The position numbers and the translations under genes are program-made. Shown piece by piece: positions 8,318 to 62,700 of a DNA stretch of 64,000 bases. This DNA is from a virus: the IMG/VR virus record IMGVR_UViG_3300025646_000029, positions 1 to 64,000 of that record; one strand, written 5' to 3'. Under the pieces are notes generated by a model. That model searched no databases, was not told where the DNA came from, and saw only the letters and a program-made list of their open reading frames with translations. The first letter of the stretch is position 1, and the number at the start of each line of letters is the position of its first letter.

Positions 8318-8320
8318 TAA

Positions 8321-9148: not shown

Positions 9149-9230
9149 ATGGCCAGCGAGGCAGAAGTTAAGGCCGCGCGTGCGGCGTATTTGCAAAGAA
9201 TTTCAAAAGCGAAATCTTGAAGGGAAACAC

Positions 9231-9441
9231 AATGATTGTGCTGAATGTTGCGGTAAACGAACCTATCCATTGTTTCAAAGATGGGGAACTGATCCTCACG
9301 ATCACACGAGTGGAATCTTCAAAAATGAGTTTCGAATGCGATCGCGGTATCCGCGTCGTGCGAGATAAAGTCCTCGCGCGTGAGTCAGAAAACATAGCCG
9401 CCACGACTTCCGTGAATGCAATGGAATTCACTGAAGACTGA
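9231..9441 (+). CDS. CsrA/RsmA-like small RNA-binding regulator (candidate)
   Basis: MIVLNVAVNEPI...GELILTITRVE...GIRVVRDKVLARE follows the CsrA pattern of MLILTR.VGE.I.IGD.I.VTVL...G..VRIG..AP..V.V.REEI, with alternating beta-strand hydrophobics and a conserved R-E near the end. RBS gaaggga upstream of the ATG at 9231. Confidence 0.35.
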
Positions 9442-36065: not shown

Positions 36066-36898
36066 TGGTGTGTCAAAACAAAATATGTGTTCTAGATTTC
36101 GAAACTGATAGCTTAGACAACAATTTCAATCAACCCGTTTCTATTGCAGCTGTCATGATAGACGGCAGATCTTTAAAAATATGCGAGAACGGGATTTTTT
36201 ATTCTTTAATATCAAGAATTCCAGATTCCGAAGTAGAAAAGTATGGTCTCTCAAAATTAGACCCAAAGTCAATGTCGATCAACGGCATACGTGAAAGCGA
36301 CCTAGAATCTGCTCCCCCTTTAAAATTAGTGTGGACCAACTTTATAAATTGGGTAAAATATTTTAACCCAAAACCCAGCAAATGGGACGGCCCAATATTA
36401 TCTGGTCATAACCATAAATACGACCGAAAAATAATCGAGAGAATTATGTATGGTACGCATTATGGCCTGAAAATATCCAATCAAAAATCAATTCAATACG
36501 CCCGGTTTTCAAAAATGACAACCGAGGAGCAAAAGGACTACTTTGCTCGAACTGCTACTTTGCAAGAACCATGGAAACTAGGTCCACAATCTGAATTTTT
36601 TCACCCGGGGCTGTATTTAGATTCGCAGGATTACAGCCATATTTTATTTGAAAACACGAGAAACTATAGAAGCATTTCTTTGTCCAACGTGAAGTCGCTG
36701 TTGGGTTTCAAAGACGACGCCGAAATAGATGAACACCATGCTCTAGTCGACACGATGTGGTCCGCTGAGATAATAGTCAGATACATCTCACTTATGAGAC
36801 AGGTTTTAAAAGATGTTGACTTTGAAACTCAAAATAAAACACACTTAGATGTGCACCAACAGCTTAAAAATATACTACAAAACGAAAAGGAAGACTGA
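36062..36898 (+). CDS. DnaQ-like 3'-5' exonuclease (candidate proofreading subunit)
   Basis: Exo I CVLDFETDS and exo III HHALVDTMWSAEI. Confidence 0.6.
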   Translation: MMVCQNKICVLDFETDSLDNNFNQPVSIAAVMIDGRSLKICENGIFYSLISRIPDSEVEKYGLSKLDPKSMSINGIRESDLESAPPLKLVWTNFINWVKYFNPKPSKWDGPILSGHNHKYDRKIIERIMYGTHYGLKISNQKSIQYARFSKMTTEEQKDYFARTATLQEPWKLGPQSEFFHPGLYLDSQDYSHILFENTRNYRSISLSNVKSLLGFKDDAEIDEHHALVDTMWSAEIIVRYISLMRQVLKDVDFETQNKTHLDVHQQLKNILQNEKED

Positions 36899-41901: not shown

Positions 41902-42261
41902 ATGAAAGTAGAATATCCCGTTTCCATTGGCGGAAAAACTATTATTGTTTCAGATGAATTAGAAAATGATACAGAGATATTTAAGTTTATTCACCACATG
42001 GAGGAGTTATTCGGAGACACGAAGTGTGAAAGAAACGGGCAGTCTTCGGATAAAGTCAAGATCAACGTTAGAGTTGATTCAGATGAAAACCATTATTACG
42101 AAATAGTCTGCTACGACAGGTCTGCTCCAGAATGCAATTATGCCAAAAGAACATTTGGCGTAAACAAGAAAGGGGGCAACTTGTTTCCCAAAAACAAAGA
42201 CCAAGAGGGCAATTGGAGGCCGTGGAGAAAATATAACCCGGAAACCAAGACAGAAGAATGA
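41902..42261 (+). CDS. hypothetical protein
   Basis: 119-aa ORF. Confidence 0.4.
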   Translation: MKVEYPVSIGGKTIIVSDELENDTEIFKFIHHMEELFGDTKCERNGQSSDKVKINVRVDSDENHYYEIVCYDRSAPECNYAKRTFGVNKKGGNLFPKNKDQEGNWRPWRKYNPETKTEE

Positions 42262-43007
42262 TTTCTCAATACAACAAAAATAAAGAAACACTGCGCCTCC
42301 TCACAGGGGGCGCCTGCAACATTGTTTGTTATGGTCCACTAGAGTTTTATTTTAGCGGACTAAAAAAATCTTTTGAATCGGATGATATAAAAGTTTTTGA
42401 TGTCACAGAATCGTTCAATAAATCTAAAGATATCGACATCGAAATGATTCCCTCGGTGTTTATTTGTTTTTCTCCACAAAACGCGTACCACTTTAGTAAG
42501 TATTGCGAAGAAAGAGAAATACCTTTTGTTTACGTTGTTCGCGACTGGCCCAAAACAAATCAACAAGCAGCAAATTTTAGGTCTTTTGTATCAAAAAATC
42601 TAAATTGCAAAGATGTTGTTTTTTACAACAGTCATCATTGTAATTCTTGGGGCTTCGGTGGAACAAACTCAAGTATGGTAGAACCTTGTGTTTCCCAAAA
42701 AATAACAAGTGACGAAAATATTTTTGTAAAACCCCAAGCGACAAAAGAAGAACTGCTCAACGCCATGGCTTCTGGGCTTGTGGTAGTAACAAGCGCCAAT
42801 AATCCAAGCGCGCAACAACTAATAGTGCAAAACCAAAATGGACTGCTTGTTAAAAGCGAGCAAGAAAAAGAATTGGTATTAGAAGCTATCAAGAAATCTC
42901 AAATTGACACAAAAACAATGAGCAAAAACGCAATACAATCAGCTTCAAGAGAATGCTTTTCTTTAAAAGAATTCACAAGTGGGTGGAAAAAAATCCTAGA
43001 AAACTAA
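42258..43007 (+). CDS. glycosyltransferase-like protein (GT-B C-terminal-like)
   Basis: MASGLVVVTSANNPSAQQLIVQNQNGLLV resembles the GT4 nucleotide-sugar-binding block. Confidence 0.4.
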   Translation: MISQYNKNKETLRLLTGGACNIVCYGPLEFYFSGLKKSFESDDIKVFDVTESFNKSKDIDIEMIPSVFICFSPQNAYHFSKYCEEREIPFVYVVRDWPKTNQQAANFRSFVSKNLNCKDVVFYNSHHCNSWGFGGTNSSMVEPCVSQKITSDENIFVKPQATKEELLNAMASGLVVVTSANNPSAQQLIVQNQNGLLVKSEQEKELVLEAIKKSQIDTKTMSKNAIQSASRECFSLKEFTSGWKKILEN

Positions 43008-46357: not shown

Positions 46358-47170
46358 ATGGCGAAATCAAAAAAGAACGCAATCGAAGAATCAACAGAAA
46401 TTGAAGAATGGGATTTCGAGGCGACTGCAGAAGAAAACTCGGTAAACCAAGAAAGCCCAACCGAACAAACAAATGTTGTTCCGAAAATGTACTCCGAAGA
46501 GTGGGAAAACTACGTTCTTTCTAATCTGAGAAACTCAGAAGTTACAAGTGATGGTTTTCCAAGGGCATTCGGGCTGCGCAGACTTGTACAGGATCACGTC
46601 GGTCAAATAATTAGCACTAGAACCCCTATTGTATCTGTCATTCCAATAGAAAACGGTTCTAGGGCTGTTACTGTAAGCGCAGAAATACAAGTAAGGGTTT
46701 CTGAAACCGTAGGATTTTTTGTCGACGGAGAAAATGTTTTTCAAAGCGAAACAAGAACTTTTACCGGAACAGCAGACTGCATAGAATCTGAGTCAAATAT
46801 ATTCGCTAGGCACCCGGCTGCTTCGGCAGAAACAAAAGCATTAAGCAGAGCCTACAAAATGGCTCTTGGATTAACTGTTTTGACTGCTGAAGAAAAGATA
46901 TCTGGATACGACCAACAAGAAGACCTGCAAAGCATGGCGCAATCGCAAAACGCCAAGCCCGCTGCTGCGTCTAGTATATTAAAGATGATAAAGGGCAAAA
47001 TATCAACCCTTCGACCGGACGCCCCAGTTGAAGATACGGTAAAAGAAATTCTTGAAAAATGTGAAATCCAAAAATCTAAACTTGAACAACTAGACGGTTC
47101 AGAGGCCAGAGTTGTATGGGGCTACATAAACGACATGCAACAGACCCTTAAAGAAGAGGTGCCTTTCTAG
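46358..47170 (+). CDS. hypothetical protein with an acidic N-terminus
   Basis: 270 aa. The last gene of the plus-strand block, convergent with the minus-strand block. Confidence 0.45.
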   Translation: MAKSKKNAIEESTEIEEWDFEATAEENSVNQESPTEQTNVVPKMYSEEWENYVLSNLRNSEVTSDGFPRAFGLRRLVQDHVGQIISTRTPIVSVIPIENGSRAVTVSAEIQVRVSETVGFFVDGENVFQSETRTFTGTADCIESESNIFARHPAASAETKALSRAYKMALGLTVLTAEEKISGYDQQEDLQSMAQSQNAKPAAASSILKMIKGKISTLRPDAPVEDTVKEILEKCEIQKSKLEQLDGSEARVVWGYINDMQQTLKEEVPF

Positions 47171-47418
47171 CCTTTGTTTTTTTGACAAGGCACGCACTCT
47201 GAGTTTATAACAACTCCGTTGACGTCGACTAGAGCTTTCCATTTTTTTGGAGTTAATGGGCAGCTTTGTTTGGCGTCAGCGGTTTTTTCTTGAACGTCAC
47301 ATCCACACAACGCGCATGTGTCCGCGACTAGAAATTCGCAGCTCCCACAAATTTTTAATCTCTCTTTTTGAAATTGTTCCATTACCATTTTCCTTCTGGG
47401 CAACTTTCTGAGTCCCAA
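47167..47418 (-). CDS. Cys-rich small protein, member 3 of the CxxC...CxxCGC...CP...W family
   Basis: KICGSCEFLVADTCALCGCDVQEKTADAKQSCPLTPKKW. Confidence 0.45.
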   Translation of the reverse strand: MGLRKLPRRKMVMEQFQKERLKICGSCEFLVADTCALCGCDVQEKTADAKQSCPLTPKKWKALVDVNGVVINSECVPCQKNKG

Positions 47419-47615
47419 GCAATTTTATATTTCAGGTAACACCCACATGAATTACACTTGTTGTTTTCTTGGTCCAGAAAATCGCAACCCGAACAAGCTT
47501 CTGACCGCGATTGTATTGTTTGCTGGTCTGCTGGCTTCAATCCATTGCTGACGTGTTTCAAAACAGACATCGCAAGGCTTACTAATTTTTTTGCGTTCAT
47601 TTGTTGCACCCACAC
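47382..47615 (-). CDS. Cys-rich small protein, member 2 of the same family
   Basis: CSGCDFLDQENNKCNSCGCYLKYKIAWDSESCPEGKW. Confidence 0.45.
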   Translation of the reverse strand: MWVQQMNAKKLVSLAMSVLKHVSNGLKPADQQTIQSRSEACSGCDFLDQENNKCNSCGCYLKYKIAWDSESCPEGKW

Positions 47616-48280
47616 CCCTTTTGAGTTTCTTTTGATTGTACTAAAGAAAAAGTTTTTGTTGTTGATTCGACTTGTTGTTTGGTTATTTCATCCCACAATG
47701 GTTGCTCTAGTGGGCACTTCTCTTTTTTGATAAAAGTTTTTTTTAAAAGATCACAACCACACGCTTGACATGATTTTGTTTCTTTGTCAAAAAAATCGCA
47801 AGCAACGCATTTTTTTAGTCTAGACTTTCGCTCGTTTTGGTCTACAAAACTACTAATAGCTTTTACGTGCTCAGGAATATGTTTTGTGTAAACTTCTGGT
47901 ATACCGTACACATTCAAAGACCCGTTCAAAATATTTTTGCAGCAATCTACTACGGACTCATAGTTTTCGACACGTATTAAATCCGGTTTGTCTATTTTGT
48001 ATGCAACTGCATAAGTGCTCATTCCAAGCAAATTTGAATCATTTTCTTTGGAAAATATTCTTAAAATAGGCACGGCAAAATTTTGTTTTAGTTCCCAACT
48101 GTATATTGTAAAATCTACCAACAAAAAATCAACGCCCGCATGGTCGTTAAAAAAATCTTTTTTTGATTCAACTTTTTTCAAAATCATATCTGAACCGGTT
48201 CCTCGATTGTGGTCACAGCTAGATACCCGTAAAGTTTTCTTAGTTTGCACTTTATATCTTCTTTGGGTTGTATTCGTCAC
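47597..48280 (-). CDS. 227-aa protein with a C-terminal Cys module of the same family
   Basis: CVACDFFDKETKSCQACGCDLLKKTFIKKEKCPLEQPLW, plus a unique ~150-aa N-terminal domain. Confidence 0.5.
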   Translation of the reverse strand: MTNTTQRRYKVQTKKTLRVSSCDHNRGTGSDMILKKVESKKDFFNDHAGVDFLLVDFTIYSWELKQNFAVPILRIFSKENDSNLLGMSTYAVAYKIDKPDLIRVENYESVVDCCKNILNGSLNVYGIPEVYTKHIPEHVKAISSFVDQNERKSRLKKCVACDFFDKETKSCQACGCDLLKKTFIKKEKCPLEQPLWDEITKQQVESTTKTFSLVQSKETQKGCGCNK

Positions 48281-51200
48281 AAAGATCCCATATACCCCAA
48301 GCCATAAAAGGCTGTTCTATCTTTAATTTCAAAGGACTTGTGTTCAAAACTGTTACATCTGCAAAATAACTTCCAGATGATATATCAGCCTGTGACTTTA
48401 TAAAACCACGTGGGCTTTCCCACCATTTTTTTATCCCTGCACCGACGACACAGTCGTCAAATGATTCATAAAATTTTGGACAAGGAAGAGTGGCACTGTA
48501 GTCTCTTGGAGACCCAGTCTCCGGGTAGTCACTGTTTCCTTGAAGTATAAAGCCACCTGTATCATATGGCCTAAGAAGGGCTTTGAACTCCCCAGAAGTT
48601 TTGTCTAGAAAAACAATGAGATCTCCAACCATTACATTAACGCCTTCAAAAAGAGTTTGGTTTGGAAGACCACTAGAAAATTTAGATATTTGCGCGTCTC
48701 CTACGCCAAACTTTGGATTTGCGTCGTCTATTGGTGTGAAATTATTGGTGTCATCGCCGTCCCAGCTAGCAAAATGAACCCTACAATGAACTGTACCGGC
48801 CCAAAATGGAAAATTCTTATAAGTTGTATTCTGTGATTGGTTTTCACAGCAATACGCAGTCAAGTCGTGAAGCTCTTTGTGAAGTCCATTGTAAATTTCA
48901 AACGCACCGGTCGACTGTTGTTCGAATGTTACCATGTCTGTAAGACTGGTAACACAGTTGTAGGAAGTATAAGGCCATGCGGTTTCTGGTACTATAGTTC
49001 CATGTCCCCAATAAGGAGCGCTTTGAAATTTCGGAGTACTTCTGACAATTATATTGCCCATTTCATCCATAAATATCCCTGGAAGCACTGGTCTAGAATA
49101 ATCTTCACCGACGTTTAAATTAAAACTTGTGTATCCATAAAACTTTTGATTAAAACTTCCACTTATTTGTGGACACGAATTCATGCTTCCACAGCCGGAA
49201 GGGTCTGTAAAAACAGGATAATCAGCCGTCCATTCTGTTATATAGTACGGGTAATCCTGAATTAACATCGGAGGGGGTGTTGAACTATTTGAGTCACCAC
49301 CGAGGATTGGTCCCCACAAATTAAAAGAATTAGTTGAAATCCTTTTATCCATGGCGTCAAACATTGTAGAAGTATGATCAAACGCTGTCAGCCCTGTTCC
49401 GCCGCGATAAAACGTTTCATGCGAATAAACCTGTCCGTCAAATTTTATTGTTACTTTTTGATTTCTAACATTAGTTGACGAATAATACTCTGAACACGGA
49501 CGGCTAATAGTTATAGTACCCAGTTCGCATTCAGAACCGTGATAAACATTGTGAAATCCAGAATTCATATTTCCTAATTCATAATCGTCACCACTACCAA
49601 GTATGTAAGTGCTTCCTGTACAAATTGGAAGTAATCCGGAATTCGGTGTTCCGCTAGACAATAAAAACCTAAAATTTCCACTCCACCACAGATTAGTTGG
49701 GTCCCAATTTAATTTGTAACTTAATTTTTCTACTTCAAATAATTTATCACCCTGACAATTTTCATCAAAGTGGTATTGAGTGCCCACATAGCTTGCGCCT
49801 CTATAAAATTTAAAAAGTGAGAAATCATCTCCCCTGACTATCGGGGTCTCTGCGTTCTCAGAAAAATGTGAAAGCTGTAAATACTCGTAATCCTTGATCG
49901 AAAAAGATTTGTCATTCATACCAAACGCACTTAGTCCTAGAGTTCCCACTCTTGGGCACGCCCCGGAATCCACGACTACGTTATTTTGAGTCAAACCGTA
50001 TCTTTCGTGAGATGAATGACCTAAGCCAATAGGAATCGCATCCTCCAATGAGTGCCTATAATCTCCATAAGCGTAGCGTGAATTGTCAAAAGACAACAGG
50101 GGCAGGCATTCGTGGCATGGGTACCCAGAAAAATTAACAAAGTTTTCGTATACATTCAATCCAGTTTCTGGATCAATTCCGACTATTTCAGACACCTCGC
50201 TCACCGACTGCTCGGTAACAACTGGAGTTATGGACCAAGTGTCATCGGCCAAAAGGTCAACTTCGTATGTATCTATTGGGCACCTTAGATACACAAGGTT
50301 CGAAGACGTTGGTGGAACTACACCTATGTCACACCTCCATACCTCGTCGTCTTCGTTCGCTGCGTATTTTAAATATTCATTGTGGTAAGCAGAAAATATC
50401 AGGTACCCTGTTTGTTCTGGTCCAGAACAGATCGAAGAAGGGGGTGGGTCGCAATTGTAACCAGATAACCTAAATTTTGCTTTAGGAATAAAGAACTCGT
50501 TTGTGCTATTACTACACGGGCACCCGAGTGGCCCAAGCATAGTCTTGTTTGAAACGTCGGTATAAGAATAAAAACAAAAATCATCTAACTGGTATTGGGC
50601 CCCGCTTATTTCTGCCCCCACTTGTATTGGAGACGACAAAATATAAATGTCTCCCGAGGCCGGTGTTTTTTCATAAGTTTCTGAAAAAATTAAGCACTCA
50701 TAATAAGGGCATCCTGAATTTGGTAATTCATAAACATACCCCGCCCCGCTTTTATTGTTTGGATTACCTCCCAGAGTAGAGCAACTAAACCCGGTGCTGT
50801 TGCGCCTTTTGTATACATCCACTTCTTGAAAAACTGAATCTGAATCAGGCTTGTTGTAAGTAAGCATCTTGATTATGTATCTGTCACCAGATTCAAAATT
50901 AGTATCAATCGTCAACCCGCTTCCGTTCGGTAAAAGCAGTGAAGTCTGCGCGTTTGAAGTCGTTACAACTGGAGAATAACTTCCATAAAAACCGAAGTTG
51001 GCGTATCCGCTTTGTGTGGGATCTAGGTCGTAAAAAGTACAACCAAGACTATCAAGTCTGCACCCACCGCTGTTTGATATCGGCTCTCCGATTACATAAT
51101 CATAATCATTCGTGGTGCCAGAAGGTAATGCGCCCTTACCGTTGTTTGAAACAAAGGACTGGCGTTGCCATCCTACTTGTAACGGATCGTTAAACGGTTC

Positions 51201-51314
51201 AGAAAAATTGCCGTACTCGTTTATGGTTTGGCAATCCGTTAAATCAAAATTATCGCAAGAAAACCCTTGACAGGTTTCAACACAGTCACATGGGCATGGT
51301 CTTCCCGATCTCAT
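48252..51314 (-). CDS. putative tail fibre / receptor-binding protein (1020 aa)
   Basis: Last large gene of the tail module. Cys-rich N-terminus (CPCDCVETCQGFSCDNFDLTDCQ). Gly/Ser/Asn/Tyr-rich and beta-rich composition. The assignment rests on position only. Confidence 0.45.
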   Translation of the reverse strand: MRSGRPCPCDCVETCQGFSCDNFDLTDCQTINEYGNFSEPFNDPLQVGWQRQSFVSNNGKGALPSGTTNDYDYVIGEPISNSGGCRLDSLGCTFYDLDPTQSGYANFGFYGSYSPVVTTSNAQTSLLLPNGSGLTIDTNFESGDRYIIKMLTYNKPDSDSVFQEVDVYKRRNSTGFSCSTLGGNPNNKSGAGYVYELPNSGCPYYECLIFSETYEKTPASGDIYILSSPIQVGAEISGAQYQLDDFCFYSYTDVSNKTMLGPLGCPCSNSTNEFFIPKAKFRLSGYNCDPPPSSICSGPEQTGYLIFSAYHNEYLKYAANEDDEVWRCDIGVVPPTSSNLVYLRCPIDTYEVDLLADDTWSITPVVTEQSVSEVSEIVGIDPETGLNVYENFVNFSGYPCHECLPLLSFDNSRYAYGDYRHSLEDAIPIGLGHSSHERYGLTQNNVVVDSGACPRVGTLGLSAFGMNDKSFSIKDYEYLQLSHFSENAETPIVRGDDFSLFKFYRGASYVGTQYHFDENCQGDKLFEVEKLSYKLNWDPTNLWWSGNFRFLLSSGTPNSGLLPICTGSTYILGSGDDYELGNMNSGFHNVYHGSECELGTITISRPCSEYYSSTNVRNQKVTIKFDGQVYSHETFYRGGTGLTAFDHTSTMFDAMDKRISTNSFNLWGPILGGDSNSSTPPPMLIQDYPYYITEWTADYPVFTDPSGCGSMNSCPQISGSFNQKFYGYTSFNLNVGEDYSRPVLPGIFMDEMGNIIVRSTPKFQSAPYWGHGTIVPETAWPYTSYNCVTSLTDMVTFEQQSTGAFEIYNGLHKELHDLTAYCCENQSQNTTYKNFPFWAGTVHCRVHFASWDGDDTNNFTPIDDANPKFGVGDAQISKFSSGLPNQTLFEGVNVMVGDLIVFLDKTSGEFKALLRPYDTGGFILQGNSDYPETGSPRDYSATLPCPKFYESFDDCVVGAGIKKWWESPRGFIKSQADISSGSYFADVTVLNTSPLKLKIEQPFMAWGIWDLCDEYNPKKI

Positions 51315-51325: not shown

Positions 51326-54300
51326 TTATGGTGGAAGTGGTCCACCGCCTCCGGGGTCGCCACCGTCGCCACCATCTCCGCCGTCGCCACTGTTTGCCTG
51401 TGTCCCGGTTCTTAGGGCCAGCATTTCAAGGGCGTCATCATCAGCAGAACAAGCTGCATAAATAATAGACTTTACTCCATTCAAATCGTGATAATAAACA
51501 ATCGTTCCGGGCAATATATCACCGATGCTTTTATCAAATACGACGACTTTGTTTTTGTTTCCAAGTCTTCCTGTGGCCAAACTTGGTCTGTCTGGAATGT
51601 AATCGTAAACCCATCCTTCAGAAGGACTGGTAATACTTGTTGGAGGAGCTATGTTGTCACTGACTATAGCCATGCTTACATTATTGAAGCCCCACATTCC
51701 AATATCAGGCTCGTACGAAGCCTTGAATGGCCCATACGCCCACTTGTCTGGGTTGTAAAGGTAATCGTAGTCGTATTGAGCAGAGCCGCTGTCTGGAGCC
51801 CCTGTGGTTAAAATTAATTCGCCACTAGAATCAACAAGTGCGGGAACAGGCTCGTTATAACAGTCTCTTCCCCAACCTCCGTAAACGGCAGGTGCCTTTA
51901 TTGCTATTCCTTTTTGGTCTGGAACCCCACTACTGTTGACTTCTACAGACAGCCCGTTTCCTCTAACTCCATCGTTTGTTATTTCGCCACCAGAAGCCCC
52001 GGCCACAATAGATATATCGGCACCAACTTGTAATGGATAATAATCAAGAGAAGTCTTGTTTGTTTGTCCTGCTTCTCCTGTGTTCACCGGGAAAAACAAA
52101 CCAGGAAGACCACTCTGTCTTGGAATATTTGCGTACGGCCTAAAAATAGAATCTAGACTAACAAACGCTTTGTTCGAGTAGTTGTCGCTGACCTGTGTGC
52201 TCATATTGTACTCTGGTTGTATCACAACAGTGCTTTTATAAGAACTATTCTCAGCCGCTATAACAGAGTGTGAAGTGTTGCTGTTGTCTCTTTTGGGAAG
52301 CTCTTCAAGGTTGACAAATCTACCCCTTATGTCATTAAAGAACTCAGCGGGAGAAGACCAGGCGCCCTGAGAAAATCCACTTCTAAAAGATCTTTTTACT
52401 TTTCTTGACTCTTCTACTAATCTTTTTATTTTTTCTGTATGAAAGTTTGTGAGCTTACTAAGTCTTCTTTGAGACGAAAAGCTTTGAAAAGAATATTTGG
52501 TTCTTATTCCGTCCGCCCCTACAGAAACATTTATGTCTGTTATATATGGCCCTCCGGAAATAAGTTGATCGCCGATATTCAAATCCGGACCGGAAGCAAT
52601 TGTTAAACTTCCAGTTTCATCAAATGTTTGATCTGTTACGCCGTCATTAACTCTTGCGAATCCAGCTAGATCAAGACCTGTGTATCCTCCGTAATTCCAA
52701 GGAGCGAGGTCTTCGTTTTTTTCGTAGTCAACTGGTCCGTCTGTAAGATTACCAGAAGTCGGAGTGTAATACCATGGGCCATAAGTAAGAACATTGCTTT
52801 TTAATGGTACTGCAAAAATATCTGGCATGATTGATTTTTGCCCAGAATTATAAAACGGTTCATCTCCGCCTATAGAAGCATATATAGCGCGTTTCTTTTC
52901 GTTTGAAAAATTAACGTCTGCATAAAATGCACCGCCCTCCGATATAGCTATGTCTTCTATAAAGTTGTTCAAAACCTTCTTGGAGTTGTATCCATGGTAA
53001 GGATCATACAAAACTTTTCCGGGTAATTCAACAATTGCCCTTGGGTTTTGCAGAGTTGAATTATCGTAATAAACAGTGTTGTCAAGAACTGAACACCGAA
53101 CCCACATGTCTTTGTTGACAAAGTTCCCAGAATTTTGGGCATTTCCAAAAGTACGTTCTTGTTCACTTATCTCGGAGTAATCAAATTGAACGCCGACTGG
53201 CTGTATACCACTATAAGTTATAGCGTTTTTGTATTTAACAAACGGGTAAAACTTGTCTTGTTCTGTTAGTATTGTGTCTACGCCGCTTGTGTCTGGGATC
53301 AAACCAGAGGCGACCCCTATTGCCCATTCTTGGTCACTCAAGTATCCTTCTGAGTTTGGTTTTTGACTAAGCCTTGCCTTGGTTGATTCTGGCTCGATGG
53401 CAACAGAAGTAGAAGGAATAGTTACTATGTATCTTTTGCCATGATAGTTATCTGCTAAGTTCTTTAGTCTTTTGAATATTCTTGTGGTTTTTTCTCGGGC
53501 GCCTGTTTCTATACTATTTCCCTGAGAAAGCTCAAAGGGTTTTGTTATTTGGGAAGAATAGTATTTTGAAATTTGCTCGCTATAAAAGTCTTTGCCTACA
53601 CTGCCGATAAACTTGTTGTAAAGATTTGTAAAAAACTCCTGCTGAGACTGAGTTGAAGCAGTAGTCGATATTGAATACAAGTCATCTTCTCTGAGTCTTG
53701 CGAACGTAATCGCGTGCGGCGCCGGAGTCAAAAGGTCGAATGCTCGACCAAAAAATGGATTGATGGAATTGGTCGACGGGTAGTATAATAGCCTTTGGTA
53801 TTTACCGCCATTTAAAGTAGAGTTCACTGCATGCGAAGCTGCAGAAAAAAACTCTGGGGCTATTGTTTCGCTGTAGTACGTGCCCGCAGTAATATTATCT
53901 GGCAAGTTCCATGTATTTTCTCTTCTTTTTACTTCTATGTATCCAAACTTCGGCACACCTTCAAAGTAATGATCGGCTGTAGCGGCGTATGCTGATCCGG
54001 AAATATCAAAAACTTGGCCGTTTGGAAGTGCAGTCTTTGGAAGCTTTAAAACAAATGGTCTTGCTGTTACGGGACCAGTCCCGTTCGATATATTGTATAG
54101 ATTGCAGGACCTTTTTGCCAAAAATGCTTCCCAAGAGTCTCTTCCGGCCTTTGCTGCTTCTAATTCTTCTGAACTGGTAGTATAAGAACCGGAGGGAAAA
54201 GAAGGGTGGGCTATATCCGATATGTCTATGTCAAACAGATAATTTTCCGGGTCGTCTATGTATGTTCTTCCTACTATGTAATTTCCATACGAATCGTTTC

Positions 54301-55201
54301 CATAATAAGGAAGAACATTATAGCCAAGATATTCTGACTCTGATATTTCTCCATCTTGTATAAGATTGGCGCCTGTAGAAGCCGGGGTTTTTTCAACAAA
54401 CCACATCTGTTCGACATTTGCGCCAACTACCATTTTAGAAGTTGGGTCTTTCCTTATTTCCTGCCCTATATCTTTTTCAACCAAACAGTTTATAGAATTT
54501 ATGTAGTTTTCTATGGCCCCTGGTGTAGGTTCGTTTGACCTACTTATAGTGTAAACCTTGAACTCGCCGTCTAAACCTGGTGTTAGCGTTTCTTCTAATT
54601 TTACAAAAAAATCTACTCCACCAGCCTCACAAACTTCTTGAATAAATTCTAATATACTTACGCTGTCGGAGTTTATTCTGTAGTAATCAGGCAGTAATGG
54701 TAAATTAGAAAGATCTATTCCGTAAGAGTGACCTTTGTGTTTTATTGGGTTTCCATAAACGTTACCAGAAGTGTTGTTTAAAAGATATACAACAGAATCT
54801 CTAACTTTTTTCCAAGAAATACCTGCATCATTTACTTCCGAGTTACCAAAAGAAAATGACTCTAGATAACCAAATGGATTTATCAAGTTAGGGACATTAG
54901 ACGTTGCACCATAGTAATCATTCAAGATCAACTTGGTTCCCTGTAAAAGAAACAACCCATTAGAAAGATTAACACTGTAATCAAAAGAACTAGAGCTGTA
55001 GTTCTCAGTGTACCTATCTAGCAAACCAAAAAATTCAAAAGACCCGTATTGAAACAAGTGAGGATAGCCGACCGGGCCTGGATCAAAACTGTCTCCTTCT
55101 ACTTTACAGTCAGCTAATTTTATATCACAAGATATTTCTGACCCGCCCCATGCTACAGAGGTAGAAAAAGAAAGAATAGAGGACCCTAAAAATTTAGACA
55201 T
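51326..55201 (-). CDS. putative baseplate or tail-associated large structural protein (1291 aa)
   Basis: Sits in the position of tail-associated lysin (Tal)/hub-like proteins. Gly-rich C-terminus GDGGDGGDGGDPGGGGPLPP. Confidence 0.45.
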   Translation of the reverse strand: MSKFLGSSILSFSTSVAWGGSEISCDIKLADCKVEGDSFDPGPVGYPHLFQYGSFEFFGLLDRYTENYSSSSFDYSVNLSNGLFLLQGTKLILNDYYGATSNVPNLINPFGYLESFSFGNSEVNDAGISWKKVRDSVVYLLNNTSGNVYGNPIKHKGHSYGIDLSNLPLLPDYYRINSDSVSILEFIQEVCEAGGVDFFVKLEETLTPGLDGEFKVYTISRSNEPTPGAIENYINSINCLVEKDIGQEIRKDPTSKMVVGANVEQMWFVEKTPASTGANLIQDGEISESEYLGYNVLPYYGNDSYGNYIVGRTYIDDPENYLFDIDISDIAHPSFPSGSYTTSSEELEAAKAGRDSWEAFLAKRSCNLYNISNGTGPVTARPFVLKLPKTALPNGQVFDISGSAYAATADHYFEGVPKFGYIEVKRRENTWNLPDNITAGTYYSETIAPEFFSAASHAVNSTLNGGKYQRLLYYPSTNSINPFFGRAFDLLTPAPHAITFARLREDDLYSISTTASTQSQQEFFTNLYNKFIGSVGKDFYSEQISKYYSSQITKPFELSQGNSIETGAREKTTRIFKRLKNLADNYHGKRYIVTIPSTSVAIEPESTKARLSQKPNSEGYLSDQEWAIGVASGLIPDTSGVDTILTEQDKFYPFVKYKNAITYSGIQPVGVQFDYSEISEQERTFGNAQNSGNFVNKDMWVRCSVLDNTVYYDNSTLQNPRAIVELPGKVLYDPYHGYNSKKVLNNFIEDIAISEGGAFYADVNFSNEKKRAIYASIGGDEPFYNSGQKSIMPDIFAVPLKSNVLTYGPWYYTPTSGNLTDGPVDYEKNEDLAPWNYGGYTGLDLAGFARVNDGVTDQTFDETGSLTIASGPDLNIGDQLISGGPYITDINVSVGADGIRTKYSFQSFSSQRRLSKLTNFHTEKIKRLVEESRKVKRSFRSGFSQGAWSSPAEFFNDIRGRFVNLEELPKRDNSNTSHSVIAAENSSYKSTVVIQPEYNMSTQVSDNYSNKAFVSLDSIFRPYANIPRQSGLPGLFFPVNTGEAGQTNKTSLDYYPLQVGADISIVAGASGGEITNDGVRGNGLSVEVNSSGVPDQKGIAIKAPAVYGGWGRDCYNEPVPALVDSSGELILTTGAPDSGSAQYDYDYLYNPDKWAYGPFKASYEPDIGMWGFNNVSMAIVSDNIAPPTSITSPSEGWVYDYIPDRPSLATGRLGNKNKVVVFDKSIGDILPGTIVYYHDLNGVKSIIYAACSADDDALEMLALRTGTQANSGDGGDGGDGGDPGGGGPLPP

Positions 55202-55225: not shown

Positions 55226-56713
55226 CTAAGGTGACTGTGAACCTGATGGCGGACACGCCTGTGTTTGCCATACCCAAGACACATTGTAAGAATAAAGTTT
55301 GTCGTACTCGTTCCAGTTCTCAGACTGGCTTTCAACAACTTGATAGTTTACACCAGATATATTCAATGAAGGCATAAAATCGTTTACCGCGCTTTGTAAT
55401 TCTGCTGCCAAGGCTGTGTCGGACCTTGGCCCAAATGCTCCTATAGAAAGATCGCATGGGTAAATTGCTTCTATAGAAAGACTTGTTTTATTGGCTTTAT
55501 TGCCGGTCGTATTTATTTTTTGTATAAGCTCACCACCACCGAGTATTGGTATGGTTGCAAATATATCTTCTCCGAAATTGTTTGATACACTAATATTTTC
55601 CCAACTAGCACTGGATAATCTTCTTGATCTTCCTCCGTGATATTGGTAATTGTACGTTATAGTTCCTGTTAATGGAGAAACTCCAACTGTAGTAACATTT
55701 GGCGTATTGTATAAAGTGAACCCGGTTGCAGCTTCGCCTCTTAGTCGTACACCAGAAGCCTTTATCGAGTTCCAAAAATTTAAAGCGTTGGCGTACTTAG
55801 AAGTCAACACTTCTCCGTTTGCAAAGTCTCTTGTTTCGAAACCGTTTATTGTCCCGTTTATTGTGACATTTGGGCAAGCCCTAGAAGTATCAGTAGAAGA
55901 ATCTACCGTGTATTCTTCTTTGTATGGATCGTTTGAATATGTCCAAGTTTCAGAAACAGAATAAGTTTGGTCGTTTATACTAGAACTGTGTGAGTCGACA
56001 TAATTGTATTTGTTAGTATAGTTATCTAGTCCACTGATAGCCAACTGAGGTGCTACCGCGTTTGCCCCTATTTTAGAAGCAACATATTCTCTCGCTCCGT
56101 CTAGTCCTGACTTTGTTATGTTTCCGCTGGAATCAAATATATTTACTCCTTGGGCGGAAACACTATGAGAAACAGTATATATTCTGTTGTCACCACCTGA
56201 AGCATTAACGTTTTCGTGTTCGTAAGCAAAGTCCCATGATTCAGACACTGTTCTTAGTCTCGTCCCCGTTGGCTCTGCAGGGACGCCGCTACAAAACATG
56301 TTGTCGCTAGTCAGTGTAACAGAAAAGGGCCAGTACTGCGGGTTGTCGGATTCGTCACACGAAAACGACTCCACTTTGGGATAGCATGTCAAGTGGTCGG
56401 GCGAAGTACTGGTCCCTATTGATAGCTTTCTATAACTGTTAGAAAACAAGCCTTCTAGTGCGCATTTTTTTGTTATTAAGGATTTTATCCAATTTGTTTC
56501 ACCATTTTCTTCGATTATGTCGCACGTGCTTCCAGGATCAACAAAGTTTCCGCTTGAATTTGGCGACCCCATTTTTGCCAGAAGTTTACCGCGCAAAGAA
56601 ATACTGTATGAAGACGATATCTTTTCGCCGGCATCGGTAAAAACAGGGTTGTAAGAAACACTTACGGCTTCTATCGGTTCTATGTTAGAAAAATCGTATT
56701 TTATTATTGCCAT
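55226..56713 (-). CDS. putative distal tail protein (495 aa)
   Basis: Sits immediately downstream of the tape-measure-like gene, in the position of a distal tail (Dit) protein. Assignment by synteny only. Confidence 0.4.
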   Translation of the reverse strand: MAIIKYDFSNIEPIEAVSVSYNPVFTDAGEKISSSYSISLRGKLLAKMGSPNSSGNFVDPGSTCDIIEENGETNWIKSLITKKCALEGLFSNSYRKLSIGTSTSPDHLTCYPKVESFSCDESDNPQYWPFSVTLTSDNMFCSGVPAEPTGTRLRTVSESWDFAYEHENVNASGGDNRIYTVSHSVSAQGVNIFDSSGNITKSGLDGAREYVASKIGANAVAPQLAISGLDNYTNKYNYVDSHSSSINDQTYSVSETWTYSNDPYKEEYTVDSSTDTSRACPNVTINGTINGFETRDFANGEVLTSKYANALNFWNSIKASGVRLRGEAATGFTLYNTPNVTTVGVSPLTGTITYNYQYHGGRSRRLSSASWENISVSNNFGEDIFATIPILGGGELIQKINTTGNKANKTSLSIEAIYPCDLSIGAFGPRSDTALAAELQSAVNDFMPSLNISGVNYQVVESQSENWNEYDKLYSYNVSWVWQTQACPPSGSQSP

Positions 56714-56733: not shown

Positions 56734-59700
56734 TTAGGGTCTATATCCACCTGCAATATGAGGCGGGACAAAAGGTTTTGAAGTTTTGGCAGATGATATC
56801 GGGTTAATTGTCAAGTCGGGGAAGGTTCTCCTTAATTCTTCTGCTACTCTTGAAACTGCTGTGTTGGCAATTTCAATTTTTAATTGCTCGGAATTTATTC
56901 CGTCCATTTGTGTATTAACACTAACAACTATAGGATTTACATTCAATGTGTGATTTATAGTGGTTGGCATATTACTTAAATTTTTAGCTTGCTGAGCAGT
57001 TGCTTCAGCAAACTTGTTCATATTAACACCAAATCCTATTATGGCCTCTCTGTTCATAACCATTTCTGTTATAAGATTTCCTATGCTTGCAGAGAGAGCT
57101 ACATTTATGCTAGTCAAAGCGTTTTGGGCTTCGATTTGCTTTTGGAATTCTTCTTGAACTCTAGCAGACTCGGGTATTGGTCCGGTTTTAGCTTTTATTC
57201 CTATAGAGTTTTCAAACACTCTGGTTTTTGATTCGTCACCAGAAATATAAGACTGAAGAGCGCCCTTTTCTTGTGAGCTCAAAGACATCAAGCTAGAAAG
57301 CCCGCCGGACTGAACTCTTTGAAAAGCTTCTGCTCCTCTAGAAAGATTTATGATTTCTTCGTCTGATCCAAGCAGAGCATTCGAAAGTTTTTCGGCTGAC
57401 CTAGCTGCTGATTCGGCAGCAGATTCGTAGTCCCTCATGGCTTTTGCCATTACCTCTCCGCCTTGGGCAGCTGACTCTAAAGCAGACCTAAGAGCATCTT
57501 TTACAAACTGCGTCTGTGGGGTTACTCCAGATTTACTTTCTAGTCTTGTAACCTGTCTGTATCTATCCATTATATCTTGTGTAGAGGCACCCGCTCCTAA
57601 CCCAGTACCTCTGAGTTGAACCGCCCGTTGACTTGATTCAAACTGTTGTGCTTGAGACCTAGTCAATTCTCCGGTTTTAGAACCGCCTATAGACTTGTTT
57701 AAAAACTCAGTAAGGCTCTTTCTAGTATCCAAAGTCTTAGACAAACTTTCGTTTACCTTAGATTCTATTTCTAGCCTAGATTTGACTTTGTCTCTCATAC
57801 CGTCTTCAAAGTCAGAAGTAGCCTTTTCAAAAGCTTTTAAAAGTTCAATTTGACCTTTGTCGATATCAAATCCCTTGACTATTTCTGATAACTGCGACAA
57901 TTTTATGGTTTCACCGGCGGCCTCGGTTAATTCCTGAGACTTTTGTTCAAGATACCCCTCGAATACCTCCTGAAACTTCATTACTGCGTCGTCGCCAAAA
58001 TTCTGGGACTTTAAAGATTTTCCTAGTTCCTCTACCAAAAAGTTTTGCGCGTCAAGACCGCCACCGCCAGTATTTTTTATAGCATTCTGTATACTGTCTT
58101 GGTCTAGAGTAGAAAGATATCTGGATATGTCCGCCTTGCCCCTTTCTAAAGCAATACGCTCGTTCACATCAGTAAATGCCTGCTTATTAAACTTTCTGAA
58201 TCTAGCCATGAGCTTGCTAAAATCTTGATACGCTGGCCCTGCAATTTCCTGTCCAGTTTCAAGCTGCCCAAAAACAGACTCGTCTAGTTTGCTCGACGTG
58301 ATTTGTCCAAGCGCTGTTTGTATCTTTTTGTCAAAAGCGTTTGTGAACTGTTCAGCTGTTGTTATTACGTTTGTAAGGTCTTGAGCTAAACTTGTAACTC
58401 TTAAAAAGTATTGCTCTGATTTTTCTAAGGCTAACTGCCTTGCTTGGTCTGTTAGATCTACGGACGCCCCAAGATCGTCGTTCAGTTTTTGAAGGTCGTT
58501 TAGATTCAGGCCTGAAGCCTTGAGAATTTCTGCGCCACCTGTTTTACCGCCTATTGTATTAAATACCTCGGTAAACTGGGCTCTCAATTCCTTTTTCTGT
58601 CCTTCGGTCGCGTTGGGGGTCAAATCTTTTATTCTTTTGATTGTTTCTACGAGCCCTTGTCGGGCAGCAGACTGTTCTTTGCTCATTCCAGCTGAGCCTG
58701 GCTCTGCAGCATTTTGCGCCGCAACGTATTTTGCCATTGATACTTCGTTAAGAGCAACGTCTTTTTCAAATTTGTCTTGTTGAACTATTGAATCTGGCTT
58801 TTCTCCCGCAAGCAAGTCTATAAAATTTGCCAAAGAAGCCGCCAGCCAATCGAAAATATCAACGATCTTGCCAAAAGCATTTGCTAAACCGTCCACTACT
58901 GGCTTCATTAGCTTTTCAAGTAACGCGCCGGTTTTTACAAACAAATTACCAAGGCTTTTCCCAAGCCTTGTTTTCTTTAAAGAACTGCTCAATGAAGAAA
59001 GTCCACCTAGTATACCACCTATAATCGCCCCTTTTGGCCCTAGTAGTGACCCAGCTCGCGCGCCACCAAAAACCCCGCCTACTGTTGACAAAATAGCAGA
59101 CATGTTTTCGTACTTCTTTCTTTTTGCAAAAATGGCGTCGACTTCTTCAGCTGATTTTGCTTTCGATAAATCGTCTTTAGTTTTTTCAGCAGCAGAAGAA
59201 TAATACTGTGATCCCCCAAACGCAAGAGCGGATGACAAAAGGCCGCCGGCGCCTTTAACAAAATTAAATGCTTTCAGAGCCGTTCCCGCCTTGCCGGTTG
59301 TTTTTAGAAAATTAGGAACTGCTTTAGCTCTATCTACAGCCGTCGAGCCAACGCCGCCCTTTGTTTTTGCAAAATTGGTCAATCCGATTTTTTCGGAAAT
59401 CGTACCCAATATCCCGCTACCCGCGCCTCCTTTTATTCTTGCTTCGGCAGCAGCAATTGCGAACGACGCAGTTGTAAACACGCCCACAGCCGTTCCAACC
59501 GCTTCTGTTAAAAGCAGCATGTTATCGGAAGCTTCTTTGCTTGAAGACGCGTAGGCCCCTAAACCAACCACAGCTAACCCAGCAGCTGCTGTAAGACTCT
59601 TCATACTAATACTGGATTTGACTATATTCTTCAAAAAATCTTTGATTGGTCCAGTTTTAGGCGGCGGACCCGAATCCCCACCTCCGCCTGAGCCGGCTGA

Positions 59701-62700
59701 ACCGCCCGGTGGAGGAGGGCCGTACACCCCGCCTCCGCCGGCCATTTCTGAATCAGCAGTCCTGTATATTCCAGTTGGCTTTCTAAGGCCCTGTTTACCT
59801 TTAACAAACCCTTGTTGCTGAGGAAGGCCAAGGGAGCGAGCTACAGTCGCATCAGGTACAACACGTTGTTCTAAAAGATTTTTCTGTAGCGACTGAAGCA
59901 TTTGTAACAAAATACGGTTTGTTTCGTCACTTTTTGTTCCACCTTCAGCAAGTGCGCTTCTTATAAAGTCTATAGCCCCTTGATCTGTGTTGGAACTAAG
60001 AGCCTTTTTCTGATAATCAGACGAGCTTGCAAATACGTTTGCAAATGCTTCTTTTAGAACCTTCGCACGACCTTCTTTATCCGATTCATCGTATTGTTTT
60101 TTAAGATCTTTGTTTCCGGTTATAAAAGCCATTGCAATCTTGTTGAAATTTTCACCTTCTGTTGCAGAGGCGAATCCGGCTGCTGTTTTCAAACCGGCTT
60201 TTCTGTCAACAGCGTGTCCGACTTCATGTTTAGCAACAAAATCTGTAGAACGATCATCAAACCCCTTAGCAACTCCTAAAGCCCCTCTTTTCCCCTGTCG
60301 AGGCATACGGTGCCCCCCTGCGAATTTACCGCCCCTTGTATCTTCGCCGTAATCATAATTTGCTTTTATAAAATCACGAGTTTCCTCGCTAAGATTCTGT
60401 ACAATTGGACCAAAAATAGAACCAGCATCAATATCTTTGGGATCTTTAGGAGACATCAAACTCGACAATTTTTTACTCATTCCTCCAAAAAAACCTTTTA
60501 TTCCCGCAGAACCGGAATCTTTATAATTCGGGTTTCTAGTAAGCAGGTTTGTTACTCTGTCGAACACGCCTAAGATTCTATTGTTTTCAACTTGTCCTGG
60601 GGCTTTAGTTATATTCGCGTGTTTTTTGTATTCTTCGTTCGGAATATCCATCAACACAACTTTGTCCCCGAAACCAGAACGATCAAACGGGCCAACAGAA
60701 CCAGTTGTCAATAAACCGGCGGCATCTTTATTAGAAGTAAAAGCGTCAGTAGTAGATGTAATATCAGATTTGTATTTAAACGGTTGTCCAGACAATAATT
60801 TTTCAGCAACTCCCTGACCGGTAAAATGAGTAGCCCTAATATTGTCTTTAGGAATCGAAGGCAAGCCAAACGATACAAGAGTTTTTGTTAAGTAAGAAAC
60901 TGCTTGACTTGATCTTTTAAGAATGCTTTGTCCAAATCTAGACATAGCAGAACTAAACCCTGCGCTTGTTTTTGTTATTTTGCCACTAATATCATCTGAA
61001 GATTTTAGAATATTATCTCCAAGTTTTTCCATAGAAGAAACAAACTCGTCTCCTAGTTCTTTTACGTAATCCAGATTAGGCCCTGTTATATTTGCACGGG
61101 TCGAGCCCGGTTTGTCCATAAACCTAATAGATCCTATGGATTTGTATGTGTCTCCAAGCGCTTTAAACAGTGACTTTCCGGCGCTTTTTGCAGAACCAAC
61201 AATAGTAGAAGAAATTTTTGAAAATAATTCTTCAAAAACTTTAGTAATTAAATCAAAACCGCCACCATTTGGTAAATTAGAAAAACCTCCGGGACCGCTT
61301 CCTGTGTTGGCTTTTTTTATCTTGCCGGAATTTAATTTGTTCAAAAAGTCTTTTCCATATTTAGAAACTGACCTTCTGTTTAAAACGTACTCGCCTTTGG
61401 TCAACAAATAAGGCTCCGTGTCTACGTTTGGGCCTACTCCTGGAATCAATCCTCCAGAGTTCATTCCCGCGACATCTAACACCGGGGTAGCTTTTCTACC
61501 AAAAAATGAGTTGCCGAAAGAATTTCCAACACCAGCCCAATCAAGACCTGCTTGCGCGAGTTTTGTATTAAAAAAGGAAGACGCTAACCTAGCAAGAGTT
61601 ACGCCTGCTGTGATTCTCCCGAACGCGCCAAAAGATTCAATCAATCTAGTCGTAGCCGATAAAGTCGAAGTTATAGCTTGTGTAACCAAAGTAAATCCGT
61701 CTACAAGAGCTTTGAACATAGGAGACCTTCCTAGCTCTGTAAACAAATCAACAACAGACGCCTTGGCCCTGCCAAGCTTGTTTTCTATAGAATCAAAAGC
61801 TATGCCAACATCTCTGTCTAAACTACCGGCTCCGCTTTTGAAGCTTTCGGTTGCTTTTTTAGCCTCATCAAAACCTTTAACAAGAGACAGTACTCTAGAT
61901 ATTTGTCTCGGGCCCGAGATTTTTTCGAAAATTTCAGCGAATCTTGGGTCGCCTGACGCTATTCCGAGTTCATCTAGTCTTTTTACAACTTTTCCGATAG
62001 CCTCATTAAAACCGATAAATTGGTTTTGGGTATCAAGCAAGTTTATTTGGTATCGATTTTTCAAAAACCTTTGAATACTGACTCTCTGAAGTCTGGTCAA
62101 AACGTTTCTCAAAGAGGTGGCCAGCGTTTCGTCCGCTTCTCTTGTTTTGCCTTTTAAGACTGTAAACGCCCCAACAAAATCCCCCAAAGAATCCATGTAA
62201 CTTTGGCCTTGGGCTGTTGACGCAGCAAAGGCGCCACCGGCTCTTCGTATAGCTTTGGTGATACCGTCGGCTTCAACAGGAAACTGAGCCGCGACTTGAG
62301 AAATACCACCAATCACCCCTTCCATTTGTCTGGCTGGTATTTGAAACTGGTTCATTGTTGCAATGACAGATTCAGATATTTGCTCAGACGAACCAAATGT
62401 TGGCCCTAGTCTAGCTTTTGAAACAGTTTCAAGTATAGTAGCTAACTCTTTGCCTTGTATGCCAGCCTGAGCAAGTACGTCTGCTGATTCTGCTATTTCA
62501 ATAGTAGAATTACCATACGCTTTGCCCAAATTTAAAATAGAGCTTGCAAGTTGATCGGACTGCTCTCGCGCGCTTTCCATGCTTTGTCCGTTGCCAGCAA
62601 GAATCTGAGTAAGCTTAGTAAACTGTTTGTCTAATCCTACAACTTCTCCAGCGGACTGCCTTATTGCGGAAGTAATTGTGTATATTGGCGTTGCCGCAAA

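Follow-up and report, generated by a model that had tools for sequence, protein, structure and literature searches.

Lambda gpL and its relatives, like pb3 of T5, are iron–sulfur (Fe–S)-binding tail-tip proteins of long-tailed phages, and P2 Ogr and P4 Delta are zinc-binding late activators of about 72 amino acids (aa) that are encoded at the end of the tail cluster. The known chaperones of tail fibres are, to our knowledge, not cysteine (Cys)-cluster metal proteins. Here we analysed the first 64,000 nucleotides (nt) of the IMG/VR virus record IMGVR_UViG_3300025646_000029 (positions 1 to 64,000, referred to below as the window), which is a piece of a large phage genome with low GC content (about 38%), and concentrated on three consecutive genes, A, B and C, that close its tail operon. 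The proteins that they encode are new members of DUF6171, a domain of unknown function (DUF) that is catalogued and wholly uncharacterised. As far as we searched the literature, the tandem A-B-C arrangement, its placement after the fibre position throughout a phage lineage, its association with a Cys leader in the upstream protein and the linkage of the family to carbohydrate enzymes are undescribed. The three genes are as follows.

47597..48187, minus strand: gene A, 196 aa, with an N-terminal domain of about 110 aa, the DUF6171 module, a linker and a C-terminal KGCGCNK tail
47382..47600, minus strand: gene B, 72 aa, a canonical minimal DUF6171 protein that ends in CPEGKW
47167..47382, minus strand: gene C, 71 aa, whose DUF6171 module has a short first spacer and is followed by the C-terminal tail ECVPCQKNKG

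Each gene carries one copy of the module C-x2-C-(D/E)F-x5-7-C-x2-CGC-x12-CP-x3-5-W, and the complete motif was confined to these three open reading frames (ORFs) of the window. Its occurrence is far beyond chance: the DNA core TGY-N6-TGY-GGN-TGY, which corresponds to C-x2-C-G-C, was observed 5 times against 0.13 expected. The two remaining ORFs with C-x2-C-G-C (1932-2330 and 4103-4387) proved to be ordinary zinc ribbons (CPxCG ... CPECGC) and were rejected as DUF6171 members. A sequence-only reading of the window had already noticed that three minus-strand ORFs carry the same Cys module, and both a motif scan and the family matches described below confirmed this. The lengths that it gave (83, 77 and 227 aa) belong to the longest ORFs, which open at TTG or GTG codons. 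The probable ATG starts give 71, 72 and 196 aa, respectively, and match public gene calls: P0014 is gene C, P0001 is close to gene B (97%), and a 196-aa call at locus L010 is close to gene A. Because these starts shorten the ORFs, A and B overlap by 4 nt (ATGA) and B and C by 1 nt (TAATG), and the earlier overlaps of 20-35 nt were an artefact of the longest ORFs. The proposal that the three genes are coupled and stand distally in the tail operon held up, as these overlaps make translational coupling of A, B and C plausible and the three are the last tail genes. Gene A starts 64 nt past the stop of the 1020-aa ORF upstream, and no promoter- or terminator-like site stands out within the A-B-C unit.

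Locus L010, which is 91% identical to the window at the nucleotide level, keeps A, B and C intact, although C was not called there as a gene. Synonymous changes relative to L010 outnumbered non-synonymous ones in all three genes (22:11 in A, 5:2 in B and 8:5 in C) and no Cys was changed, which indicates that A, B and C are real genes under purifying selection. The gene A module (Cys 127, 130, 140, 143, 145 and 158) has 38-40% identity with gene B across 58 aa (E ~2e-10), and the cluster representative of gene A is P0017. The GCGC-basic C-terminal tail of gene A is found in numerous other members of the family, P0010, P0012 and P0013 among them, and the gene C subtype, whose tail pattern is C-[VI]-P-C-Q-basic, was found with a PCIPCQAKSR tail after a B-type gene in the distant relative L001. 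A, B and C are three anciently diverged DUF6171 paralogues that represent distinct old subtypes. The largest protein adds an N-terminal domain of its own, as had been noticed; this domain aligned only with P0096, which also ends in GGCGCGG, and showed no similarity to the proteins upstream of DUF6171 at other loci. All three proteins are predicted to be soluble, since their highest Kyte-Doolittle 19-residue averages (0.69 for A, 0.76 for B and 1.23 for C) reveal no hydrophobic stretch.

The module almost certainly belongs to DUF6171 (PF19668)/phrog_13558. Genes B and C scored 27.5 and 28.3 bits against the Pfam model, above the gathering threshold of 27, and gene A scored 20.0 bits (E=9e-4), below that threshold; phrog_13558 matched all three (E=2e-9 for A, 1.9e-15 for B and 1.4e-7 for C). 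The motif had been thought to lie outside any named family. It does have a name, and no match to a well-characterised family appeared, DUF6171 being itself uncharacterised. A, B and C had no match in NCBIfam. A profile hidden Markov model of the three modules, proposed in the sequence-only reading together with a check of Cys spacing, was searched against 1.84 billion proteins. It recovered 9,726 representatives of 50%-identity clusters at E<=1e-3, of which 752 reached E<=1e-10, and the Cys spacing was retained in about 95% of the top 150. The family signature in A, B and C is C-x2-C-x8-11-C-x2-C-G-C-x12-C-P-x3-5-W with an Arg four residues before the first Cys, and the invariant columns in sets of 18 and 128 homologues were this Arg, the six Cys, Gly, Lys, Pro and Trp. 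Carriers of DUF6171 include cyanophages, large marine long-tailed phages, prophages and gut Firmicutes, and three modules occur per chain in P0016, P0027 and P0064. We also noted DUF6171 ORFs that are unannotated in published records, namely those of Sf-FP1 (L289 4001-4141), S-T4 (L290 4001-4204), Sf-CH3 and Xanthomonas phage X1.

The six conserved Cys probably bind metal, a prediction drawn from how invariant they are in this cytoplasmic domain of 45 residues and from the AlphaFold core, which is modelled with confidence and consists of two helices, a hairpin and a short helix. In gene B an amphipathic helix is followed by a second helix bearing the invariant Arg and then by the six Cys, and the predicted local distance difference test (pLDDT) score was about 90 for residues 21-72. 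For gene A it was 95-98 over residues 120-170 and below 50 over residues 1-104, where the model had no alignment depth and is unusable. A zinc-ribbon or treble-clef fold had been suggested as something to check. No relative of the confident core was found in the PDB: profile searches reached only E=0.03 (the NSE1 RING-like finger) and Foldseek returned nothing. The zinc ribbons of RPB12 and L32/L31 gave weak profile matches (E ~0.1), and a search of BFVD returned only uncharacterised phage proteins.

To place A, B and C in their operon, we list the main features of the window that surround them.

63906-47167, minus strand: tail module, running from the tape measure gene through the 495-, 1291- and 1020-aa genes to A, B and C, which come last
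56734..63906, minus strand: tape measure protein, 2390 aa (phrog_28 E=1e-28; Pfam PhageMin_Tail E=2e-19)
55226..56713, minus strand: 495-aa protein in the distal-tail position, homologous to L019_478 and L003_537
51326..55201, minus strand: 1291-aa protein in the tail-tip position, homologous to L001_1204 (35%), L019_1248 and L003_1399
48252..51314, minus strand: 1020-aa protein in the fibre/receptor-binding position, with 34 Cys and the N-terminus MRSGRPCPCDCVETCQGFSC
46358-47170, plus strand: convergent gene whose end overlaps the gene C stop by 4 nt, so that the tail operon and the replication/glycosyltransferase operon meet at 47167-47170
39279-40901 and 42258-43007, plus strand: two GT1 glycosyltransferase genes, in the operon that converges on A-C
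1-47170, plus strand: replication/nucleotide module with ribonucleotide reductase (RNR), a split PolIII alpha, DnaB, primase, RecA, PhoH, ligase and the two GT1 glycosyltransferases

The tape measure protein marks the operon as a tail module. By the usual rule of about 1.5 Å of tail length per tape measure residue, its 2390 aa would correspond to a tail of roughly 350 nm, and no sheath gene was seen in the window. The tape measure protein contains no Cys at all. The 495- and 1291-aa proteins had no family match in Pfam and PHROG scans, and the 1020-aa protein had none in Pfam, PHROG, NCBIfam or INPHARED; a megablast search with the region and tblastn searches with the 1020- and 1291-aa proteins likewise gave zero matches in INPHARED. 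No tail protein of the window differs more from its L010 counterpart than the 1020-aa protein does (86.6% with insertions and deletions; its neighbours 95-97%), which is consistent with a receptor-binding role. The sequence-only reading had called this ORF the tail-fibre gene. Its position and variability make the ORF a putative tail-fibre gene, and a family match that would corroborate the label did not emerge from the scans. We presume that the 1020-aa protein is the partner of A-C. In L010 the ORF in the fibre position (6244-9417) extends to 1057 aa and has an ATGA overlap with gene A; compared with the window, in which the stop lies 64 nt before A, this shows that the C-terminus of the fibre-position protein is in flux between close relatives. 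No terminator-like hairpin was found between the two convergent operons (47167-47170).

We found homologues of the 495- and 1291-aa proteins, at 23-35% identity, in several uncultured long-tailed phages, and we use the 1291-aa tail-tip-position protein to define this phage lineage. In the lineage that shares both homologues, one to three DUF6171 genes come after the variable gene or genes that follow the 1291-aa homologue, and the DUF6171 start usually overlaps the upstream stop. The gene orders are given below, with proteins denoted by their lengths in aa.

L010: same gene order as the window, with all three DUF6171 genes
L001: 1204, 651, 515, radical SAM, Methyltransf_24, DUF6171 (B type), DUF6171 (C type)
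L003: 1399, 212, DUF6171 (with an A-type tail), 332
L019: 1248, 347, 276, DUF6171, 213
L283: 1303, 733, 635, DUF6171, DUF6171
L285: 1301, 634, DUF6171, 241

Throughout this deep lineage the position of A-C is conserved, whereas the fibre-position genes next to them have been exchanged. Placement in or next to tail modules was also seen elsewhere. DUF6171 is the last tail gene in a prophage of Paludisphaera borealis and lies in the middle of the tail module at L011. In Leptospira phage LE1 it stands three genes downstream of the baseplate J-like gene, behind two unannotated ones of 197 and 257 aa, a site that we take, assuming a P2-like gene order, to be roughly that of P2 gene G. It lies 300 nt past the distal subunit of the long tail fibre in Synechococcus phage S-SCSM2R and within a block of short-tail-fibre and virion structural genes in Sf-FP1. 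Among 110 IMG/VR loci taken by a degenerate DNA pattern, one neighbour cluster was Phage_fiber_2. Two further observations concern the lineage itself. The tail module of L001 (658-10004) holds genes for a GIY-YIG endonuclease, a phosphoribosyltransferase-domain protein, the radical SAM protein and Methyltransf_24 before its two DUF6171 genes, and a family of 213-358-aa proteins (MATIDFQ.../MPTISFL...), for which the window has no equivalent, follows DUF6171 in L003 (10462-11460), L019 (10414-11055) and L057 (6678-7754).

We then compared the proteins encoded directly upstream of DUF6171 and found that they start with a Cys cluster in seven of nine independent loci, as listed here.

window, 48252-51314, N-terminus near 51314: 1020 aa, MRSGRPCPCDCVETCQGFSC (MRSGRPCPCDC)
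L003, 9379-10017: 212 aa, MGRPCCCKK
L015, 9570-10004: 144 aa, MPGIGLNPSGCCCAPPVPCAC
L017, 8322-10004: 560 aa, MSFLFNPCQPCCG
L019, 9174-10004: 276 aa, MPCNKLQNCQAGNC
L283, 8097-10004: 635 aa, MSCIDCTKLKGRQAEIC
L285, 8097-10001: 634 aa, MGRPSKCGHCRCTDCD

At least three Cys occurred within the first 25 residues at 7 of the 9 loci, compared with 26 of 1,660 background ORFs (1.6%; binomial P ~8e-12). The leader variants include RPCPCDC, RPCCC, NPCQPCCG and GCCCAPPVPCAC, and past the leader these upstream proteins are unrelated to one another. In P0097 the elements occur in a single chain, which consists of a leader, MFLFNPCRPCCG, that matches the one of the 560-aa protein of L017 (MSFLFNPCQPCCG), a variable domain and a C-terminal DUF6171. 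Searching IMG/VR reciprocally, with a DNA pattern for the NPCxPCCG leader, yielded mostly out-of-frame chance matches, and the few real ones ran off the end of the locus.

Several functions had been proposed for these genes from their position, and the one most consistent with the conserved synteny is a metal-binding adaptor or fibre accessory. We consider it about an even call whether A-C are functionally linked to the distal tail fibre in this lineage. That they are metal-stabilised adaptor or assembly subunits for this fibre, possibly linked to fibre modification, is our tentative reading and falls somewhat short of even, and any specific adaptor or chaperone mechanism is more doubtful again. 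According to this adaptor reading, the six Cys, with the invariant Arg, Lys, Gly, Pro and Trp, would hold one or two metal ions, most likely zinc, with an Fe–S cluster also possible, and the metal would fold a knot of roughly 45 residues after two helices. DUF6171 would be a protein-docking or assembly module and not an enzyme, as suggested by its small size (about 45 residues), by the enzymes and tetratricopeptide repeat (TPR) scaffolds that carry it at their C-terminus and by its tandem arrays. The client in this lineage would be the exchangeable upstream protein in the fibre/receptor-binding position, whose only feature conserved across loci is the Cys cluster in the first ~25 residues. A, B and C may bind or mature this N-terminal Cys anchor, either as small structural adaptors that join the fibre to the tail tip or as a chaperone for assembly or metal insertion. 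A role as fibre chaperones had been suggested outright; the position of A-C agrees with it, and no homology to known chaperone families was found. Docking may also recruit fibre-modifying (glycan) enzymes, a possibility raised by recurrent fusion and linkage of the family to glycosyltransferases, sugar methyltransferases and a glycosidase. In its most elaborate form, which we regard as a long shot, DUF6171 and the upstream Cys leader would form an inter-protein metal 'clasp', a plug and socket that mounts exchangeable receptor-binding or fibre proteins on the tail tip and perhaps presents them to glycan-modifying enzymes. A-B-C would then be the socket for a trimeric fibre, and bacteria would reuse the docking domain for carbohydrate-enzyme complexes (GH51 and GT2-methyltransferase).

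A number of results weigh against the adaptor reading. The nine loci that support the leader association were reached through similarity to gene B, and the association was weak in the pattern-based IMG/VR sample (2/97 vs 5/1492, P=0.06). The contexts in that sample are also heterogeneous. In the largest group (16-19 loci), a DUF6171 protein of about 100 aa lies between small ORFs and a PD-(D/E)XK nuclease; further loci adjoin 2-oxoglutarate (2OG)-Fe(II) oxygenases, terminase, RNR, DNA polymerases and primase-helicase; and tail and tail-fibre PHROGs made up about one third of 34 large neighbours, which is not clearly above expectation. The phages Mendera, TM30, ACP17 and S-T4 carry DUF6171 among small hypothetical ORFs. 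The glycosyltransferase operon beside A-C lies on the other strand and follows the replication module, so that it could serve DNA hypermodification instead. The C-terminal Cys tails were not confidently docked in the AlphaFold model (pLDDT ~63). This also bears on an idea that we considered and dropped, a 'split metal site' in which extra Cys pairs complete an eight-ligand RING-like site: together with the absence of the extra pairs in 93 of 112 IMG/VR members, the poor docking of the tail weakens it. Finally, a full-text literature search for DUF6171/PF19668 found nothing, and function is here read from context. Broader literature searches, which covered the glycosylation of virions and Cys-rich or zinc chaperones of tail fibres, returned no relevant paper, and a 'moraphage' paper was put aside as concerning a different lineage with contractile tails.

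The linkage of the family to carbohydrate enzymes suggests another explanation, namely that DUF6171 is an accessory or targeting domain of glycan enzymes, that A-C serve the neighbouring glycosyltransferases in virion or DNA glycosylation and that adjacency to the fibre is secondary. The domain might then bind a sugar, a nucleotide-sugar or an acceptor. DUF6171 is fused to GT2 in P0057 and to GT2 and Methyltransf_24 in the Planctomycete locus L156 (3307-5127), and TPR scaffolds are fused to it in Planctomycete members; we observed domain fusions in Planctomycetes and metagenomes at L156, P0057, L148, L170 and L196. In L286, DUF6171 is the first gene of a same-strand operon with Mannosyl_trans3, an FkbM methyltransferase, GT2 and an epimerase, and in cyanophage Sf-FS3 it heads a sugar cluster of P4H, 2OG, dehydratase, methyltransferase, epimerase and glycosyltransferase genes. 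The L017 cassette, with DUF6171 and the 560-aa Cys-leader protein, lies amid GT1, TylF, FkbM and acetyltransferase genes, and the Methyltransf_24 gene of L001 stands directly upstream of DUF6171. In the window, L001, L003 and L019, the operon convergent on DUF6171 carries glycosyltransferase or sugar-nucleotide genes, in the window the GT1 genes listed above. Among 70 short DUF6171 genes from bacterial genome loci (L142-L261), a gene for a GH51 alpha-L-arabinofuranosidase was directly upstream in 24 and within the 8-kb locus in 35. These GH51-linked loci come mostly from Lachnospiraceae and other Firmicutes, in which a DUF6171 gene of about 80 aa lies 1-4 nt downstream of GH51 (for example, L145, 831-2333 and 584-826), and we found no description of the GH51-DUF6171 gene pair in the searched literature. 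The invariant Trp, Lys and Arg and the mildly basic core would also suit a sugar-phosphate ligand. We nevertheless consider this explanation unlikely. A-C in the window are transcribed with the tail genes and not with the glycosyltransferase genes, carbohydrate enzymes are missing from the surroundings of many DUF6171 members, GH51 differs from the transferases in being a catabolic hydrolase, and no 45-residue Cys knot is known to serve as a sugar-binding site. The explanation also overlaps the adaptor reading if the fibre is the target of glycosylation.

Small Cys-rich proteins at the end of an operon could instead be nucleic-acid-binding zinc-finger regulators comparable to P2 Ogr and P4 Delta, or autoregulators of the operons that they close. 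The net charge of +3 to +4 of the family core (median pI, the isoelectric point, ~8.4), the weak similarity to the RPB12 and L32/L31 zinc ribbons and the frequency of replication genes among the neighbours would suit this, as would co-transcription with abfA in Firmicutes in the case of autoregulation. We judge it improbable. Pfam gave no match to Ogr_Delta or any other DNA-binding family, and the charge of A, B and C themselves is close to neutral (net +1 to +3, pI 7.5-8.3). Fusions with GT2/methyltransferase and TPR proteins and chains with triple modules would be unusual for transcription factors, and three tandem paralogues would be unexpected for a single regulator.

Slightly less probable still is that A-C are 'moron' genes, which would encode host-takeover or anti-defence zinc fingers aimed at a host protein and have no role in the tail. 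Operon ends past fibre genes are classic moron sites, DUF6171 stands among small early-type ORFs in several cultured phages, and the copy number varies from 1 to 3 across relatives. Yet the position is kept across relatives whose tail-tip identity is only 23-35% and whose neighbouring fibre genes have been replaced, A-C appear to be translationally coupled to the upstream gene, and the family also occurs in non-phage bacterial GH51 operons and as a domain of bacterial enzymes. A PADLOC search with A, B, C and their neighbours gave no match in a library that covers defence and not anti-defence.

The last alternative, which includes the lysis or holin regulators of the sequence-only reading as well as redox or ribosomally synthesized and post-translationally modified peptide (RiPP)-type elements (mini-ferredoxins, or Cys-rich precursor peptides of radical SAM enzymes), is very improbable: a Pro follows the final Cys, a feature of ferredoxins and rubredoxins, a radical SAM gene stands two genes ahead of DUF6171 in L001 and some neighbours encode Fe-dependent enzymes (2OG oxygenases and RNR), but A-C have no hydrophobic or membrane segment, no lysis gene nearby and no match to a lysis PHROG, the Cys spacing is unlike that of ferredoxin, a conserved fold fused to large proteins is unlike a leader-core precursor, and the radical SAM gene is found at the single locus L001, with none among the subset of window ORFs that was scanned. 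The neighbours of A-C that were scanned contained no lysis family, and since the window is part of a larger genome, the contig of a relative reaching about 180 kb, lysis genes may lie elsewhere.

We also made two observations in the replication module that lie apart from A-C. The PolIII alpha subunit (DnaE) is split into one ORF with the PHP and NTPase parts (33059-34915) and one with the finger and HhH parts (36898-38502), about 2 kb apart, and the interval holds a DnaQ-like RNase_T exonuclease gene (36062-36898) and three small ORFs, of which one has a Cys content of 7.8%. The ORF at 30473-31195, between the primase gene and a gene resembling deoxynucleoside monophosphate kinase, matched DUF7227 (E=5e-73), which is likewise uncharacterised.

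DUF6171 is among the larger uncharacterised families of small proteins in phages and has a predicted fold without a PDB relative. The window offers a clean case, in which three paralogues close a tail operon and the Cys leader is a candidate signal of their client. It opens a very large DUF to testing. If the adaptor reading is true, it would provide a handle on how exchangeable receptor-binding proteins are mounted and modified in uncultured marine phages, and a first function for a family that recurs beside carbohydrate-active enzymes. If it is not, A-C are three further copies of a catalogued domain with no assigned function.

Among the systems described so far, A-C can be compared with five. 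P2 Ogr and P4 Delta differ in their Cys spacing (C-x2-C-x22-C-x4-C) and, as noted, in Pfam family. With the NSE1 RING-like finger and the zinc-ribbon knuckles of RPB12 and bL32, A-C share the order C-x2-C ... C-x2-C-G ... C ... C-P ... W, which aligns; of the features of an NSE1-type binuclear treble clef, we found neither eight cross-braced ligands nor a significant profile match nor fold similarity. The Fe–S tail-tip proteins lambda gpL and T5 pb3 resemble A-C in having a conserved Cys cluster in the distal tail, with metal binding by A-C being a prediction from sequence. In gpL and pb3 the cluster lies within a structural protein of the tail tip, whereas here it is in a separate protein of 70 aa encoded past the fibre gene, and no homology between the two was detected. 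The fibre chaperones and assembly proteins Tfa, P2 G, Mu U and T4 gp38 and gp57A are similar in that A-C are small and are encoded immediately downstream of the fibre gene, with which they are probably co-translated, and placement directly downstream of a fibre-position gene was also seen in L010, L003, L019, L283, L285, LE1 and S-SCSM2R. Fibre chaperones are encoded by one gene each, whereas here there are three paralogues, and A-C showed no homology to tail fibre chaperone families in Pfam, PHROG and NCBIfam. The closest relatives are the other members of DUF6171/PHROG 13558, which are like A-C in their six-Cys signature, in the preceding helix with its invariant Arg and in size. The Firmicutes members from our genome scan, which come after GH51 genes, have an extra N-terminal CxxC pair that the window copies lack; two of the window copies carry C-terminal tails with a Cys pair instead, and gene A adds its novel N-terminal domain.

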